Shown here in pieces: positions 7,905-40,441 of a stretch of DNA of 64,000 bases. The translations under genes were made by a program, and so were the position numbers. The stretch is from contig JBBRSU010000001.1 in assembly GCA_038245195.1 (NCBI GenBank), positions 192,121 to 256,120 on the forward strand, given 5' to 3'. This stretch comes from Candidatus Saccharimonadales bacterium (lineage in GTDB: Bacteria > Patescibacteriota > Saccharimonadia > Saccharimonadales > UBA10212). The notes below the pieces were generated by a model. That model was given only the letters and a program-made list of their open reading frames with translations. It made no database searches and had not been told where the DNA came from. Position 1 is the first letter of the stretch. The number at the start of each line of letters is the position of its first letter.

Positions 7905-8453
7905 ATGACTAAGAAGACTTATCATCCTAATCAATCTCAACTGTTCACTGCTAACCTAGCCTGGAATGATTTAGAGATTCAACCTTCAGTAAATGAAATC
8001 CCTTTAACCATGGGCGAACCCGGCACCTATGTAGATGTTGAGGAGCGAGCTAAACTGCTAATAACGGCACTCGGGGCATTCAGCCAAAGGAATAGTCGAA
8101 GAACGTTCCCCTTAGCCGCATATACTTCGCAATACAGCTCCCCAATATGGCAACGATATCAAGAATATACCGAACCTGTAGTAATCCCTGGGGCCCGGCG
8201 TAATGCCGAAATGTACGATCGGATTGCAGCACACAGTTTTTGGCATGCCACAGGCTTTCCTGCTTTAAAGAAAGTTGTCGGAATAGAGAATATAATTCGA
8301 CCAAAGCAAATAGACGAAAGAGCTATAAAAATGTGGGATAGCTTTCAGGATCTATATGGTCGGCCAAAAGACCTAAAAGATAGGAATGGCTACAAAAGAA
8401 AGCTTGGCAAATTTGTGACTAATGTTGTCGATTCAGAAGCCAATGCCGCATAA
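7905..8453 (+). CDS. hypothetical protein
   Basis: 182-aa ORF with no competing frame. No recognisable motif. Confidence 0.45.
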   Translation: MTKKTYHPNQSQLFTANLAWNDLEIQPSVNEIPLTMGEPGTYVDVEERAKLLITALGAFSQRNSRRTFPLAAYTSQYSSPIWQRYQEYTEPVVIPGARRNAEMYDRIAAHSFWHATGFPALKKVVGIENIIRPKQIDERAIKMWDSFQDLYGRPKDLKDRNGYKRKLGKFVTNVVDSEANAA

Positions 8454-8467
8454 AGTATAATTGGCTT

Positions 8468-8794
8468 ATGAAAGAACCAGAATTACACCCACAAATGCCC
8501 GATGACTTTGATCGCCGTGATGATCAGGGGATCTGGACCGGCCAGTATGCGCGGGAAGGACAGTATCCTCCCAAAGAGCCAATTACTAAGGATGCATCTG
8601 CTGGTCCAAAGAAGCCGGTAAGAGCACCGGTGCGGGGAAGTATCCAGCTTCAAATAGCTGATAACGATAAAACCGCTGAGGAAACTCACGATAGAATGGA
8701 AAGTGAATCCGAAATGCGCCAAACAGTTACCGACGAAGAGCGCTTACATGGTGCTGAGCAAGCCCGTAAATGGCTTGATGATAATAAGAAATAG
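8468..8794 (+). CDS. hypothetical charged, probably disordered protein
   Basis: 108-aa ORF rich in D/E/K/P. Confidence 0.4.
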   Translation: MKEPELHPQMPDDFDRRDDQGIWTGQYAREGQYPPKEPITKDASAGPKKPVRAPVRGSIQLQIADNDKTAEETHDRMESESEMRQTVTDEERLHGAEQARKWLDDNKK

Positions 8795-8803
8795 TATCTC
8801 CAG

Positions 8804-9754
8804 ATGAGTTTTTTGGAACAACTACCTAAGCCATTCTTTGTTTTGGCACCGATGGACGATGTTACAGACACGGTTTTCCGTCAAATTGTAGCGGGTTGTG
8901 CCAAGCCCGATTTAATGTTCACCGAATTCGTGAATGTTGATGGTCTGCAAAGCCCGGGCAGGGAACATCTAATGCATAAGCTCAAGCTATCGACCGCCGA
9001 AGGCCCGGTGGTGGCTCAGCTATGGGGCTTAAAACCTGAGAATTATTACAAAACTACTAAAGAGATTATCGAAATGGGCTTTGCCGGAGTGGATATTAAC
9101 ATGGGCTGCCCGGTAAAAACTGTTATTAAAAATGGTGCTTGTGCGGCACTTATAAATAACCGCCTGCTGGCTGGGGAAATCATTGATGCCGTCAAAGCAG
9201 CAGCAGGGGACACCCTGCCCGTCTCTGTTAAAACTCGTGTGGGTTTTACAACGATTGATATGAGCTGGATTGTTTTTTTGCTCAATAAAAAAATACTTAA
9301 CATGTTAAGTATTCATGGCCGGACGGCCAAGCAATTATCTAGCGTTCCAGCTAACTGGGACTTGATAGGCCAAGCCGCACAACTGCACACTTCCCTTTCA
9401 CCTTCAACTTTAATAGTTGGTAATGGTGATGTGATGAACCTCCAAGAGGCCGAGGATTTGGCAAAAAAACATAATTTAGATGGAGTGATGATTGGCCGCG
9501 GTATTTTTCATGACCCATTTGCGTTTGCTCAGGAAAGTCCGTGGCAGGGCTGGACCAAAGACCAAAAACTGCAACTTTTTGTTAAACATATAGAACTCTA
9601 TCTAAAAACTTATCAAGACGGTCAGCGCCGGTTCGAAACTTTGCGAAAATTCTGCAAAGTCTACATCAATGGCTTTGACGGAGCATCAGAACTTCGGACC
9701 AAATTTATGAATAGCAATACTCCAAACGAAGCCCTGGAGTTGCTAAAACAATAG
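8804..9754 (+). CDS. dus: tRNA-dihydrouridine synthase
   Basis: FVLAPMDDVTDTVFR, GVDINMGCP (catalytic Cys) and SIHGRT. Confidence 0.9.
   Translation: MSFLEQLPKPFFVLAPMDDVTDTVFRQIVAGCAKPDLMFTEFVNVDGLQSPGREHLMHKLKLSTAEGPVVAQLWGLKPENYYKTTKEIIEMGFAGVDINMGCPVKTVIKNGACAALINNRLLAGEIIDAVKAAAGDTLPVSVKTRVGFTTIDMSWIVFLLNKKILNMLSIHGRTAKQLSSVPANWDLIGQAAQLHTSLSPSTLIVGNGDVMNLQEAEDLAKKHNLDGVMIGRGIFHDPFAFAQESPWQGWTKDQKLQLFVKHIELYLKTYQDGQRRFETLRKFCKVYINGFDGASELRTKFMNSNTPNEALELLKQ
9292..9313. repeat. palindrome family copy D (AATACTTAAC-AT-GTTAAGTATT) inside dus
   Basis: Perfect 22-bp palindrome preceded by an A-run. Encodes KILNMLSI. Confidence 0.8.
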
Positions 9755-9764
9755 CCTTTATCTC

Positions 9765-9773
9765 TGTTATACT
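9765..9773 (+). promoter_or_regulatory. extended -10 promoter (TGTTATACT) for the following tRNA
   Basis: TGn-TATACT lies 9 nt upstream of the tRNA 5' end. Confidence 0.45.
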
Positions 9774-9782
9774 GGTGTTTAC

Positions 9783-9858
9783 GGGGGCGTAGCTCAGTGG
9801 TTAGAGCAGTCGGCTCATAACCGATTGGTCCCTGGTTCAAATCCAGGCGCCCCCACCA
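9783..9858 (+). tRNA. tRNA with CAT anticodon, probably tRNA-Ile2 (lysidine type); Met not excluded
   Basis: Acceptor GGGGGCG/CGCCCCC and anticodon loop CTCATAA. The body (AGTGGTTAGAGCAG..CTCATAA..TTGGTC.CTGGTTCAA.TCCAG) closely resembles my recollection of E. coli tRNA-Ile2. tilS is present in this window. Confidence 0.85.
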
Positions 9859-10325
9859 TGATTATGTTTGAGAAAATCCAAAATATTTATAACAACAAAA
9901 CCACCAAACAACTACTAGATGTCCGGAATCTTGGCTTGTACGTTTTTGGGATAGTGATTTTGGCAATTGCCTGGAGTGGTGCTAAAACCGTCCAGAATAA
10001 CTACGAACTGCAAAAGAAAATTTCTACACTCCAACAACAAAACGCTATTTTGTCGCTGGAAAACAACAATACTTATTTGCAAAACCAATATTATAAGACT
10101 GACCAGTATTTAGAGCTGTCAGCCAGGCAGAATCTAGGACTGGCCGCCCCCGGCGAACAAGTACTTTTGGTATCAAGAGAAGCGGCCCTCAAATACATAG
10201 ACCCAAACCTAGGCCAAACCACTGATACTACCAAAAACGCAGTGGCTGACAGCCGCTCAAAACCGGTTAAAAACCTGGAAGCTTGGCGCGATTTTCTCCT
10301 CGGTCGGAAGCTTTTTCAAAACTGA
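9858..10325 (+). CDS. septum formation initiator (FtsB/DivIC-like) protein
   Basis: TM helix, then coiled coil (LQKKISTLQQQNAILSLENN), then YLELSARQNLGLAAPGEQV. The ATG shares its A with the tRNA CCA end. The track ORF starting at 9825 runs through the tRNA. Confidence 0.6.
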   Translation: MIMFEKIQNIYNNKTTKQLLDVRNLGLYVFGIVILAIAWSGAKTVQNNYELQKKISTLQQQNAILSLENNNTYLQNQYYKTDQYLELSARQNLGLAAPGEQVLLVSREAALKYIDPNLGQTTDTTKNAVADSRSKPVKNLEAWRDFLLGRKLFQN

Positions 10326-10541
10326 GACAAACAGGGGTAAAACCGCTTCATTGATAAGTTTACAACATAGCTCACAGGGGCGGATTTGACTTATATTTTA
10401 CGACGTGTACGATGGTCTTTGTATCTCTACGTTTTTTGTGAGGTGGAGATGCATCAAAACCGAATCTAAAAACTGCTAAACTAATTAAATTTTATAACCG
10501 CGTAAATAGCGCGGGCGGTTTAGATTTGGTAAGGAGGATAA

Positions 10542-11270: not shown

Positions 11271-11345
11271 TGGTAGCGGGGAGAGGACTCGAACCTCTGA
11301 CCTCATGGTTATGAGCCATGCGAGCTGCCGCTGCTCCACCCCGCG
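11271..11345 (-). tRNA. initiator tRNA-fMet (CAT), CCA encoded
   Basis: Reverse complement is CGCGGGG...CTCATAA...CCCCGCT-A-CCA. Position 1:72 is unpaired (C1/U72), and there is an A11:U24 pair and a GG/CC pair at the base of the anticodon stem. Confidence 0.85.
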
Positions 11346-11460
11346 TTAACTTTGAAGGACAACCTACGGTTTTCCTTTAACGACACTTTCGGAATAAATC
11401 CGAATTCTGCTTAAGCAGAACCTTGTCTACTACCTTTCCCTTAATTAAAAAGGAAGACCA
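11346..11460 (-). ncRNA. unclassified structured RNA (copy A), co-transcribed upstream of tRNA-fMet
   Basis: Paralogue of 38935-39049. Sequence blocks are identical and four helices covary. It has its own promoter at 11468-11496. Confidence 0.55.
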
Positions 11461-11467
11461 ATGAGTA

Positions 11468-11496
11468 ATTCTAATCTGTTAAACCTTAAAAGTCAA
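11468..11496 (-). promoter_or_regulatory. sigma70-type promoter: TTGACT, 17-nt spacer, TAGAAT
   Basis: Minus-strand reading is TTGACTtttaaggtttaacagatTAGAAT. The predicted start is about 7 nt downstream, at the 5' edge of structured RNA A. Confidence 0.6.
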
Positions 11497-38781: not shown

Positions 38782-38814
38782 AACTATATTATATGCAAAC
38801 TTAGAACTTTACCT

Positions 38815-38830
38815 TGTGCGTTTAAACACA
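38815..38830. promoter_or_regulatory. CRP-like box TGTGCGTTTAAACACA (TGTG-N8-CACA) upstream of Crp paralogue 2
   Basis: Centred about 41.5 nt upstream of the ATG at 38781, with a TATAAT (38793-38788, minus strand) 6 nt before the ATG. Confidence 0.45.
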
Positions 38831-38857
38831 CGCTATGGATTTTACCGTACAGCGAAA

Positions 38858-38934
38858 TGGTACCCCCGGCAAGATTCGAACTTGCGACCTTGAGCTTAGA
38901 AGTCTCCTGCTCTATCCAACTGAGCTACGGGGGC
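38858..38934 (-). tRNA. tRNA-Arg (TCT), CCA encoded
   Basis: GCCCCCG...GGAGA-CTTCTAA-GCTCA...CGGGGGT-A-CCA. The anticodon stem has two mismatched end pairs, and 1:72 is G-U. Confidence 0.8.
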
Positions 38935-39049
38935 AAAATTGAAGGACAACCTACGGTTTTCCTTCAACACCCGGTCGGCACAAGCCGAGTTTGCAAGCAA
39001 ACCAAGCCGGGCTACTATCTTTCCCTGGAATAGGAAAAGACAAGAACAA
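38935..39049 (-). ncRNA. unclassified structured RNA (copy B), exactly filling the spacer between tRNA-Gly and tRNA-Arg
   Basis: Paralogue of 11346-11460. The terminal hairpin TTGAAGGA-A-AACC-GTA-GGTT-G-TCCTTCAA is identical, and the three-way-junction helices covary. Confidence 0.55.
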
Positions 39050-39124
39050 TGGTGCGGGATGGGGTAGTCGAAACCCCGTCTTAAGTTTGGAAAACTTACA
39101 TATTAACCGTTATACGAATCCCGC
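39050..39124 (-). tRNA. tRNA-Gly (TCC), CCA encoded
   Basis: GCGGGAT...TAAGT-TTTCCAA-ACTTA-AGAC-GGGGT-TTCGACT-ACCCC-ATCCCGC-A-CCA. Confidence 0.88.
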
Positions 39125-39127
39125 TCG

Positions 39128-39146
39128 AACAGATGAAATTATAGCA
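39128..39146 (-). promoter_or_regulatory. conserved tRNA promoter motif TGCTATAAT-N5-CTGTT (copy 3, tRNA-Gly operon)
   Basis: Minus-strand reading TGCTATAATTTCATCTGTT, ending 3 nt before the tRNA-Gly 5' end. Confidence 0.55.
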
Positions 39147-39208
39147 GGTTTACTGGTTATTATTACATCAACTAATTGCCCTAATGCTAAATTTAGTATA
39201 ATGGTAAT

Positions 39209-40441
39209 GTGAAAACACAACGCAAAAAACTGAAGACCTGGAAGGTAAAGTTTACTATATTCTCAGGCTTAGCTATTCTCGTAATATCCTCGTGGTTTCT
39301 CGGTAGAACAGCAGCTGCTCCATGTCTATCAGATAGCCAAGTGCTATCAGCGAATACCACAAAAATAATTAAACCTAAAGCCATTTTAACCAAGCACGAA
39401 GTAAATGCTCCGGATGCAAAAGTCGTTTCAAATACTAATAATGTGGTTCTTCCGCCGCTACATACAGGCTTAAGTACAAGTAGCGAACCACAGTTGCGTA
39501 GGCTCGCAACATATGAACAATCTGCTGGGGGGGCGGTCGCTTCGGGTATGATGATTTTCACAGAATTGTCTTCGAATAATGCCGATGCACAATCAGCGGC
39601 AGTAGATATGGCAAAATGTCTAAGTAATTTTGCGACCTATAATATAAAACCAATTATTATAATGGAGCCAACTTTAAATGGAAGTGCTGTTAGCTTTAGC
39701 TCCTATCGAAACGGTGCATATGACTCGGTTTTAGACAAGTACTTTAGTGCGTTAAAAGGTGCAGGTGTGACTGATAGCGAAATGGGTCTTTGGACATACT
39801 TCCCAGAGGCAAATCTGCCGCAATGGGGTCCAGTAGATGTAGCTGATTTCGCACCAAACGTGATAAGGACGGTCAATATCCAGAAGAAGTATTTTCCGAC
39901 CAGCAAGGCGAGTATTATGCTAGATGCTGAAAGCTATCCATCTGGTAGTACGGATTGGGGTAATGGTTCATATGTAAATCTTTCCCCATTTATTAATGGA
40001 ATTCCTCGGGGCTTGATAGATAGCTTCGGACTTCAGGGTTTTCCTTGGGCCCCCCCAGCTAATCAGGGTGGCGACCCAAGTTACGACCCTTCGATTTATT
40101 TAGCTAGCAATCTAGCCATTCAAACTGCTCAACAAATGGGGCTATCAAGTGTCTGGCTCAATACCGGTACTTTTGCAGCGATGTATGCCAACGATAAGTC
40201 CCAGACTGTAAATATGTCTGCCACCCAACGCCAACAACTGCTAAATGGAGTTATTACTCAGGCTGAGAACATAAAGAATTCTGGACTTAAAGTTTCCATA
40301 AATTTATTTAGTGAAGATAAATCAAAAAGTGATGAAGCAACCGACTGGTCTTATCAAACATCAGATGCCCAAGCCGTATTTAAGTCATTCTCCCAACAGC
40401 TTTTTTTGGACAATATAGAGCTATGGCTATTCGATAACTAA
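39209..40441 (+). CDS. secreted or membrane-anchored protein, possibly a glycoside-hydrolase-like TIM barrel
   Basis: N-terminal signal anchor. Alternating beta/alpha-like pattern (IIIMEPTL, WTYFPEAN, FGLQGFPWAP). Function unproven. The GTG start is uncertain. Confidence 0.5.
   Translation: MKTQRKKLKTWKVKFTIFSGLAILVISSWFLGRTAAAPCLSDSQVLSANTTKIIKPKAILTKHEVNAPDAKVVSNTNNVVLPPLHTGLSTSSEPQLRRLATYEQSAGGAVASGMMIFTELSSNNADAQSAAVDMAKCLSNFATYNIKPIIIMEPTLNGSAVSFSSYRNGAYDSVLDKYFSALKGAGVTDSEMGLWTYFPEANLPQWGPVDVADFAPNVIRTVNIQKKYFPTSKASIMLDAESYPSGSTDWGNGSYVNLSPFINGIPRGLIDSFGLQGFPWAPPANQGGDPSYDPSIYLASNLAIQTAQQMGLSSVWLNTGTFAAMYANDKSQTVNMSATQRQQLLNGVITQAENIKNSGLKVSINLFSEDKSKSDEATDWSYQTSDAQAVFKSFSQQLFLDNIELWLFDN

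Follow-up and report, generated by a model that had tools for sequence, protein, structure and literature searches.

A structured element in the tRNA-Gly/tRNA-Arg spacer of a Saccharimonadales bacterium belongs to an uncatalogued family of modular cassettes in Bacteria and Archaea

Introduction

Bacteriophage T4 RNAs C and D (species 1 and 2) are small structured RNAs that are co-transcribed with a tRNA cluster and released by tRNA processing. Modules that define or protect an adjacent 5' end include the plant mitochondrial t-elements, mascRNA, STAB-SD and the terminal stem-loops of Firmicutes. Among interspersed extragenic repeats, namely repetitive extragenic palindromes (REP) and the bacterial interspersed mosaic elements (BIME), enterobacterial repetitive intergenic consensus (ERIC) sequences and Correia repeats, some act as RNA stabilisers or processing sites. 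To our knowledge, few structured RNA motifs have a core that is invariant between Bacteria and Archaea, and those are ribozymes, universal ribonucleoprotein RNAs and a handful of riboswitches.

Here, we describe a 115-nt element located between tRNA-Gly(UCC) and tRNA-Arg(UCU) in a Candidatus Saccharimonadales bacterium. The analysed DNA, referred to below as the window, was a 64,000-nt stretch of contig JBBRSU010000001.1 (assembly GCA_038245195.1, positions 192,121 to 256,120), and feature coordinates are those of the window. The original prediction, made from this DNA, proposed a structured RNA in two copies (A and B), the second of which would be released by processing of the flanking tRNAs. 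We found the element to be part of an uncatalogued, cross-domain family of modular cassettes in transcribed gaps. Our tentative reading, with a probability of about 45%, is that the element acts in cis at the RNA level, as a self-contained module by which the 5' end of the RNA that follows is marked, insulated or protected.

Locus architecture

The order that had been claimed for the minus strand was reproduced by the ARAGORN and Rfam coordinates: tRNA-Gly(UCC) (39050–39124), the element (copy B; 38935–39049) and tRNA-Arg(UCU) (38858–38934) abutted one another. The encoded CCA of tRNA-Gly, which ended at 39050, set the 5' boundary of copy B, and the 5' end of tRNA-Arg, the RNase P site, set its 3' boundary. 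The 115 nt, delimited by sequence, fold and homology, made up the entire spacer. The terminal hairpin of copy B, P3, stopped 3–4 U short of G1 of tRNA-Arg. Both ends of copy B abutted mature tRNA ends, and the same tRNA-Gly(UCC)-element-tRNA-Arg(UCU) arrangement was found in locus L149. A promoter had also been proposed 5' of tRNA-Gly. An extended −10-like box (TGCTATAAT; 39138–39146, minus strand) was present there and is the putative promoter of a tRNA-Gly/element/tRNA-Arg transcript, but the promoter scan gave it no score because a −35 match was missing. The same TGnTATAAT box lay 5' of homologous tRNA-leader copies.

As predicted, a second, diverged copy preceded an initiator-like tRNA. 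Copy A (approximately 11346–11461, apex 11357–11375, minus strand) was the only further copy that nhmmer and blastn found in the window, and tRNA-Met(CAU) with a 1:72 mismatch (11271–11345, minus strand) followed directly 3' of it. The promoter thought to bound copy A was matched by a promoter-like TTGACT-17-TAGAAT sequence (11468–11496, minus strand) that ended at 11468. Copy A abutted a tRNA on its 3' side only, and its hairpin was directly followed by AAGUUAA, with no U-run. The arrangement of element and initiator tRNA recurred in L151. The P3 of copies A and B, 30 nt long, was almost the same in both, and they shared the box GGGAAAG(R)UAGUAG; elsewhere they were about 65% identical, with the same helices and compensatory changes in them.

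The window contained 12 tRNA genes, scattered singly on both strands over the 64 kb. Three of these were tRNA-Met(CAU), and there were pairs of Pro, Lys and Arg isoacceptors. The element was the leader of only two of the 12. Outside the window, copy B had 66 metagenomic and 16 genomic homologues of the same class.

Fold and covariation

The minus-strand RNA of copy B folded at −47.1 kcal/mol (z = −5.3), and none of 200 dinucleotide shuffles was as stable. The plus-strand fold (−37.6 kcal/mol) was 9.5 kcal/mol weaker. From 5' to 3', the minus-strand fold consisted of the P1 hairpin, a three-way junction in which P2 closes P2a and P2b, the P3 hairpin, and UUU(U). In the minimum free energy fold, P1 (39015–39043) was formed by its 5' strand GUCUUUUCCU pairing with AGGGAAAGAUAG, and it was an optional helix. 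The GGGAAAG box (39019–39025) was invariant across the family in alignments A2 and A3. The P2 domain (38969–39012), supported by both fold and covariation, was composed of a closing helix (39007–39012 with 38969–38974) and the hairpins P2a (38989–39002) and P2b (38975–38988). P3 (38938–38968), with an A·G mismatch and a GUA triloop, was supported by the fold and by cross-lineage pairing, and carried the invariant apex GGAAAACCGUAGGUUGUCC (38944–38962). All of these features were on the minus strand.

RNAalifold on a plain MAFFT alignment found only P2b and P3, with P2 and P2a out of register, and was replaced by anchored pair counts. In the 56-sequence alignment A3, P2 showed 87 double-sided changes, compared with 22.9 ± 4.4 after shuffling (no shuffle out of 500 reached 87) and 7 or fewer in slid controls, and 87.5% of the P2 cells were paired. 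Three P2 positions alternated between CG, UA, GC and AU. In 56 of the 67 distinct copies, the number of hairpins formed by the segment enclosed by P2 was exactly two. The sequence of P2a was wholly different between sub-types, yet the two-hairpin fold was kept.

Within the Saccharibacteria class, P3 was uninformative on structure because it is invariant there, and its support therefore came from comparison across lineages. The first five positions of the stem flanking the apex were 68–86% paired across lineages, as opposed to 42–62% with shuffled partners. The pair types in this stem were AU, GC, UA, CG and GU, with G-U (51) more frequent than A-C (31). Rare apex variants also retained the helix; in GGAAACCGUAGGUGUCC, for example, one A-U pair was deleted on both sides.

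The best P1 helix averaged 6.2 bp in tRNA-leader copies; the mean for the remaining copies, 4.1 bp, was close to that of shuffles (4.0 bp). The partner of the GGGAAAG box lay upstream in Saccharibacteria, whereas in some archaeal, Kerfeldbacteria and Agathobaculum copies the box paired instead with a UUCCC or UUUCCC tract 3' of P3. A G-U pair in the 5' helix of copy B had been taken as evidence for the minus strand, an argument that lost its footing since P1 was not conserved family-wide and was enriched only in tRNA-leader copies. The orientation itself stood, being borne out by the fold energies, the excess of G-U over A-C in stems and the co-orientation with downstream tRNAs. The claim that the unit is conserved independently of its context also held, as homologues with compensatory changes were found upstream of many different genes. 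The 115-nt spacer is thus a real, covariation-supported, Y-shaped structured element in sense orientation relative to the tRNA operon.

Family members and novelty

Three parts define the family: the AGGGAAAG box, which may be single-stranded or paired, a variable domain that can be missing, and a hairpin whose apex GAAAACCGUAGGUUGUC is invariant. Saccharibacteria, other bacteria of the candidate phyla radiation (CPR), DPANN archaea and some Firmicutes together contributed more than 190 copies. When one genome per species was scanned with the P3 apex 19-mer (RGAAAACCGTAGGTTGTCY), at least 119 genomic loci were obtained, compared with about 17 expected by chance according to our own estimate from the collection size. 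Among the 80 matches listed, 16 were from Saccharibacteria, 17 from other CPR bacteria (Kerfeld-, Curtiss-, Peregrini-, Nomura-, Doudnabacteria and others), 23 from DPANN archaea (Pace-, Woese-, Nano-, Micr- and Aenigmarchaeota) and 16 from Firmicutes (Agathobaculum, Bulleidia, Flemingiibacterium and others), with a few from elsewhere. A metagenome scan with the pattern GGGAAAGRTAGTAG-N32-62-apex yielded 65 loci with 66 copies of the Saccharibacteria class. Only two viral contigs carried the apex.

Of 122 copies, drawn from all lineages, 112 had a GGGAA(AG) box 6–75 nt 5' of the hairpin. The segment between box and P3 was a 5–9-nt linker in most DPANN archaea and Microgenomates, a single hairpin, or the Y domain of Saccharibacteria.

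No family in Rfam 15 matched the element in any lineage, even at E ≤ 10. On copies A and B, the lone score at this threshold was a chance match to YrlA (16 bits, with a gathering score of 69), and a scan of the window returned only tRNAs. We found no description of the family in the literature. Because the tested defining features of known systems failed, the element was assigned to the structured intergenic or leader RNA elements.

Several candidate identities were considered and rejected. The 10-mer CCGUAGGUUG is present in a crystallisation construct of the NAD+-I riboswitch, as part of P1a beside the ACANCCCC bulge. Its architecture differs and RF03013 gave no match, so the resemblance is a coincidence. 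Mimicry of 16S rRNA helix 45 (AACCGUAGG) was dismissed as a short purine-rich match, helix 45 being different in Firmicutes with the same core. The matches to the ops/RfaH element and to AGGGAAAGUG in RNase P RNA were likewise short and purine-rich. In L016 (4140–4480), a bacterial type A RNase P RNA was encoded about 1 kb from an element copy, and the first 10 nt of its stretch UAGGGAAAGUGCCACAGAAA equalled the AGGGAAAGUG box of many archaeal copies, probably a chance identity of purine-rich sequences. An integron attC site did not fit, with the R''/R' order wrong and the outer stem not conserved between lineages. A split Shine-Dalgarno or enhancer resembling an internal ribosome entry site would fit the spacing to ATG but cannot explain the copies at tRNAs, at rRNA, in introns and in 3' untranslated regions (UTRs). 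In six archaeal copies, TTTAAA lay 6–8 nt 5' of the box and suggested an archaeal promoter element, which was discarded for a spacing incompatible with the bacterial contexts. All six of these copies adjoined tRNA genes or fragments, and in four of them a tRNA 3' fragment then followed. A phage origin of the window was also discarded: it encodes FtsH, ComEC, RNase Y, a PilB-type ATPase and a MurA-like protein, and phage databases matched only its tRNAs. The homologues of its Crp-family regulator were labelled Candidatus Saccharibacteria.

Genomic context

In the Saccharibacteria class, 23 of the 66 copies were placed 8–14 nt upstream of a tRNA on the same strand, compared with one convergent case. 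The tRNAs behind these copies were Pro (eight), Met (six), Asn (three), His (two), Gly-GCC (two), Arg-UCU (one) and one more; tRNA-Lys and tRNA-Leu were likewise among those preceded by the class. A TATAAT-like box was present 12–40 nt upstream of the GGGAAAG box in 13 of 16 tRNA-leader homologues. The 5' start said to be shared by copies A and B recurred in the tRNA-leader homologues, which open with UGUU(C/A)U. This tract doubles as the pyrimidine strand of P1 and was absent from non-tRNA copies. The boxA antitermination consensus of Gram-positive bacteria, which is bound by NusB/S10, is UGUUCUUU-like.

A survey of whether homologues always adjoin tRNAs, as proposed in the original prediction, gave a negative answer: only about 35% of the copies in this class did so, and about 65% had no tRNA neighbour on the same strand. 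Other copies of the class were found 0–14 nt past a stop codon, or before a Shine-Dalgarno-like sequence and an open reading frame (ORF). The position in a 3' UTR before a terminator can be stated qualitatively only, as the simple terminator detector was too strict (2 of 40 copies). Across lineages, the element filled gaps inside conserved operons, namely rpsF|ssb, rpsS|rplV, rplE|rpsN, rplW|rplB, rpoC|rpsL, secY|adk, secD|secF, rsmH|ftsL and L44e|S3Ae. Its distance to the ATG was fixed per lineage, with 2–5 nt in DPANN archaea, 12–17 nt in Microgenomates and 22–24 nt in Saccharibacteria. On a Doudnabacteria contig, a shorter, single-hairpin form ended about 14 nt before the 16S rRNA. The element also occurred in a 23S rRNA group I intron, of which it formed the final ~120 nt, in L145 and, as a second copy, in L100. 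The L145 element followed P7 (AAGAUAUAGUCC) and the GNRA hairpin of P9, and ended 9 nt before the 3' exon (CGUGAGACAGUUCGG).

Some of these loci had further features. In six Saccharibacteria loci (L009, L022, L038, L054, L079 and L086), in which copies preceded protein genes, mostly those of ribosomal proteins, a mini-hairpin of 3–4 bp (GCCCGGAGGGC, GGCGGAGCC) was located between the element and the start codon, and its loop displayed GGAG or GAAG, resembling a Shine-Dalgarno sequence, about 8 nt ahead of the ATG. Together with a U-run, such a mini-hairpin resembled a tiny terminator in the 3' UTR copies of L091 and L138. The L145 23S rRNA gene (reverse strand, 8242–10472), from Saccharibacteria, contained at least two group I introns, one with a LAGLIDADG-like ORF of 203 aa and the second at an I-CreI-type site (GAACGU|CGUGAGACAG) with the element as its 3'-terminal domain, as well as low-complexity repeat insertions (ctgtcttctgtctact...). 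In the Clostridia loci L075 (213–602) and L114, the element was enclosed by an extra helix, GCGCCA/UGGCGC, which was followed by UCUUUU, and was located about 120 nt upstream of a T-box leader. In L148, L160 and L190 (Saccharibacteria), CGAACGUGGGUGCGAAGCAUAGUUUGGAU was conserved about 10–45 nt downstream of the element. It gave no Rfam match at E ≤ 1 and no convincing ORF, and a further unannotated RNA may begin there.

The exact coincidence of the boundaries of copy B with tRNA ends, its stable fold and the recurrence of Gly-element-Arg in L149 and element-initiator in L151 would suit a trans-acting, stable small RNA whose ends are set by tRNA punctuation and which takes part in maturing or regulating limiting tRNAs (Arg-UCU, initiator). 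We nevertheless judge this rather improbable. Most copies of the class had no same-strand tRNA beside them, those in intercistronic and 3' UTR positions lacked comparable end-defining boundaries, and the downstream tRNA identities were many. In addition, only two of the 12 tRNAs of the window carried the element, and relatives had the same tRNA pair without it. The special link to tRNA-Arg(UCU) and initiator tRNA that had been speculated on was therefore abandoned: the class precedes many tRNA identities and ribosomal-protein cistrons and also follows stop codons. The element is probably not a regulator of particular tRNAs.

Alternatively, the element could be a cis-regulatory leader, that is, a riboswitch or a protein-binding attenuator in which P3 and the U-run act as a terminator that controls read-through. 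The UUUU after the copy B hairpin, the many downstream genes of the translation apparatus and the position upstream of T-box leaders in L075 and L114 speak for such a function. However, a terminator scan of 38800–39300 gave 0 terminator-like sites, copy A and most homologues had no U-run, and the folds offered no expression platform with alternative pairing. The downstream genes were also heterogeneous (secF, ftsL, adk, membrane proteins and many tRNAs), some copies were in 3' UTRs, and the element was dispensable at the Gly/Arg site. We regard this as the least probable of the explanations considered here.

Filled and empty sites

The spacer was only partly conserved in relatives. It was filled by the element in L149, whereas in L129 and L182 the same tRNA pair was separated by 5 nt (CATTA), with no element. 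Since these two loci have the pair without it, the element is dispensable for tRNA-Gly/tRNA-Arg. The copy in L129 preceded tRNA-His, and the tRNA-His of the window had no element. Synteny through the neighbouring Crp gene, which adjoins tRNA-Arg, was uninformative because the tRNA cluster is missing entirely from the closest relative, whose protein is 91% identical.

With two copies in 64 kb and presence or absence at an orthologous site, the element behaved as an interspersed repeat. No target-site duplication was seen at the filled/empty junction (CACCA|CATTA|GCCCC compared with CACCA|TT...TTTT|GCCCC), and no terminal inverted repeats were present, as the copy ends UUGUUCUU... and ...CCUUCAAUUUU were not inverted repeats of each other. 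The Y1 transposase motif [FWY]xPK[YF]R was not found in six-frame translations of 191 loci and the window, a weak test covering flanks of about 1 Mb. The GTAG sequence sat in the hairpin apex and not 5' of the foot, unlike the guide tetranucleotide of IS200/IS605.

Two further arrangements were observed in which the motif was part of, or adjacent to, a duplicated sequence. In Agathobaculum (L030:2166-2600, L018, L031, L060, L062, L063, L090, L093, L104, L105, L109 and L119) and Bulleidia (L006, L044, L106 and L117), the motif was present in each of the two inverted arms of a non-coding, G+C-rich repeat (about 750–1000 nt), facing outward. The centre of this Firmicutes repeat, about 330 nt, was conserved, and sub-repeats of about 65 nt stood in tandem beyond the arms. 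The repeat had no Rfam match and no ORF, and one arm often had the variant apex GGAAACCGUAGGUGUCC. In several DPANN copies (L003:1582-1765, L108, L026:2817-3089, L027:1760-1850, L015, L071 and L073), a tRNA 3' fragment, from the T-loop to the acceptor end, followed 2–5 nt after the element. In L003 and L108, the fragment duplicated the 3' end of an intact tRNA-Ser just upstream, and in L026 two 88-nt units stood in tandem after a tRNA. The DPANN arrangement looks like att-site duplications of very small integrated units.

These observations bring in the main rival explanation, a selfish DNA-level repeat comparable to REP sequences or miniature inverted-repeat transposable elements. The hairpin and box would then be the recognition sites of a transposase or recombinase on DNA or on single-stranded DNA hairpins, copies would pile up in gaps that tolerate insertion, and the RNA structure would be a by-product, discarded by tRNA processing. 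Such an origin would account for the presence and absence at the same tRNA pair, the shifting of locations between genomes, the antisense insertion in 23S rRNA helix 79 (H79), the copy inside an intron, the inverted pairs in the multi-copy ~750-nt repeat of Agathobaculum and Bulleidia, the archaeal copies that have duplicated tRNA 3' fragments beside them, a tandem array among these, and the lack of P1 conservation. It is at odds with the missing terminal inverted repeats and target-site duplication, and with the absence of an IS200-type Y1 motif among the 191 loci. The divergence of copies A and B outside the core (~65% identity), together with their compensatory changes, indicates old, structure-selected copies rather than recent transposition. 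A 24-nt core identical in Bacteria and Archaea is atypical of transposon ends, and neither the strong sense preference directly upstream of tRNA 5' ends nor the fixed start-codon spacing is expected of such a repeat. On balance, we consider a selfish repeat unlikely, although it is the rival to be taken most seriously.

Discussion

We favour a cis-acting role at the RNA level because of the sense bias at tRNA 5' ends and the fixed start-codon spacing, and because of the intercistronic and pre-rRNA positions and the structure-preserving divergence within one genome. At the Gly/Arg locus, the cassette would have entered, or persisted in, a spacer that measures only 5 nt in other lineages, and would be transcribed from the promoter upstream of tRNA-Gly. 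The RNase P cut at tRNA-Arg would then free its 3' side, and 3' maturation of tRNA-Gly its 5' side. Release of copy B by tRNA end processing, as originally proposed, is plausible: the geometry fits, and the step follows from established tRNA-processing biology. The invariant cross-domain core could serve as a recognition or processing module, i.e. a nuclease barrier or a processing signal, and the cassette might spread within and between genomes, being gained and lost as a discrete unit.

Several points weigh against this module. Seven copies of the Saccharibacteria class diverged from a tRNA on the opposite strand, and another copy, in L047, was antisense between two tRNAs. In L146 (560–760), an intact copy with its P1 partner was antisense at the tip of an extended 23S rRNA helix 79, and the rRNA transcript would therefore hold its reverse complement. 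Co-orientation with the downstream gene was seen in at least 43 of 59 cases by crude gene calls, a low figure whose true value is higher because of known miscalls. With at least eight near-full-length copies in the Agathobaculum loci, the Firmicutes repeat looks like a DNA-level mobile element. Furthermore, the arguments for an RNA-level role are confined to position and covariation, the invariant part looks like an ordinary hairpin, not a junction or loop, and would suit recognition by a protein or as a DNA hairpin no less than an RNA active site, and dispensability at the Gly/Arg site is also expected of a selfish passenger.

A more specific form of the cis-acting module would be a new self-cleaving ribozyme or a structure that blocks RNase J, making or protecting the downstream 5' end without host-specific factors. 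The core of about 24 nt that is invariant across domains, its covarying helices, the patchy phylogenetic distribution, the multiple copies, the optional inserted domain and the two topologies of the helix that pairs with GGGAAAG are all in keeping with it; strand permutation is typical of small ribozymes. It would also make sense of the DPANN copies 2–5 nt before the ATG, since a stable hairpin so close to the start codon would otherwise prevent initiation. We nonetheless hold it to be improbable. No Rfam ribozyme model matched, the conserved nucleotides form a plain hairpin, and the 3' UTR and antisense copies would have no obvious use. RNase P would still be needed, since the distance to the tRNA 5' end varies (3–15 nt). 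At its most far-reaching, this line of thought would have the AGGGAAAG box and the GAAAACCGUAGGUUGUC hairpin form a catalytic or nuclease-blocking core and so define a new class of self-contained RNA-processing modules in CPR bacteria and DPANN archaea, which would punctuate polycistronic transcripts, create or protect the 5' ends of tRNAs, rRNAs and near-leaderless mRNAs, and spread as a cassette. This too is a long shot.

The family is abundant in CPR and DPANN, both of which are radiations of ultra-small, host-dependent microbes. If the element works as RNA, it would provide a shared and portable means of punctuating or protecting transcripts where the RNA-processing machinery is minimal. 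If it is selfish, it would be a cross-domain mobile element. Either way, it is a testable object and a marker that improves intergenic annotation in CPR and DPANN genomes.

Comparison with known systems

The element follows the same logic of a tRNA-punctuated passenger as the T4 RNAs C and D. There was no detectable sequence relationship to these, phage searches having matched only tRNAs, and the element family is cellular, spans two domains and is mostly not flanked by tRNAs. Like REP/BIME, ERIC and Correia repeats, the element is short, hairpin-forming and multi-copy, occupies transcribed extragenic gaps, among them those within operons and in 3' UTRs, and is polymorphic for presence or absence. 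It is unlike them in having a core that is invariant across bacterial phyla and Archaea, an optional covarying Y domain and a sense preference just upstream of tRNA 5' ends. A six-frame motif search of flanks of about 1 Mb revealed no RAYT or TnpA gene.

The extensions of P9 in group I introns are a further parallel, the L145 and L100 copies being located between P9 and the 3' splice site, in the position of P9.1/P9.2. Copies A and B had no Rfam Intron_gpI match and neither interrupted a gene. As the module is also found in non-intron contexts, it is an add-on to the L145 intron and not a part of it.

With small self-cleaving ribozymes, the element shares a length of 45–115 nt, a conserved core of about 20–25 nt, covarying helices, optional stems, alternative topologies, a scattered distribution and an association with repeats and intergenic gaps. 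It differs from them in that characteristic cores such as CUGANGA/GAAA are absent, and the Saccharibacteria, CPR, DPANN and Firmicutes forms gave no match at E ≤ 10 to the hammerhead, twister, twister-sister, pistol, hatchet, HDV-like or hairpin models. In contrast to t-elements and mascRNA, it is not tRNA-like, as indicated by the lack of any ARAGORN or Rfam tRNA score. What it has in common with t-elements, mascRNA and STAB-SD is that it is a structured module directly preceding the functional 5' end of a neighbouring RNA.

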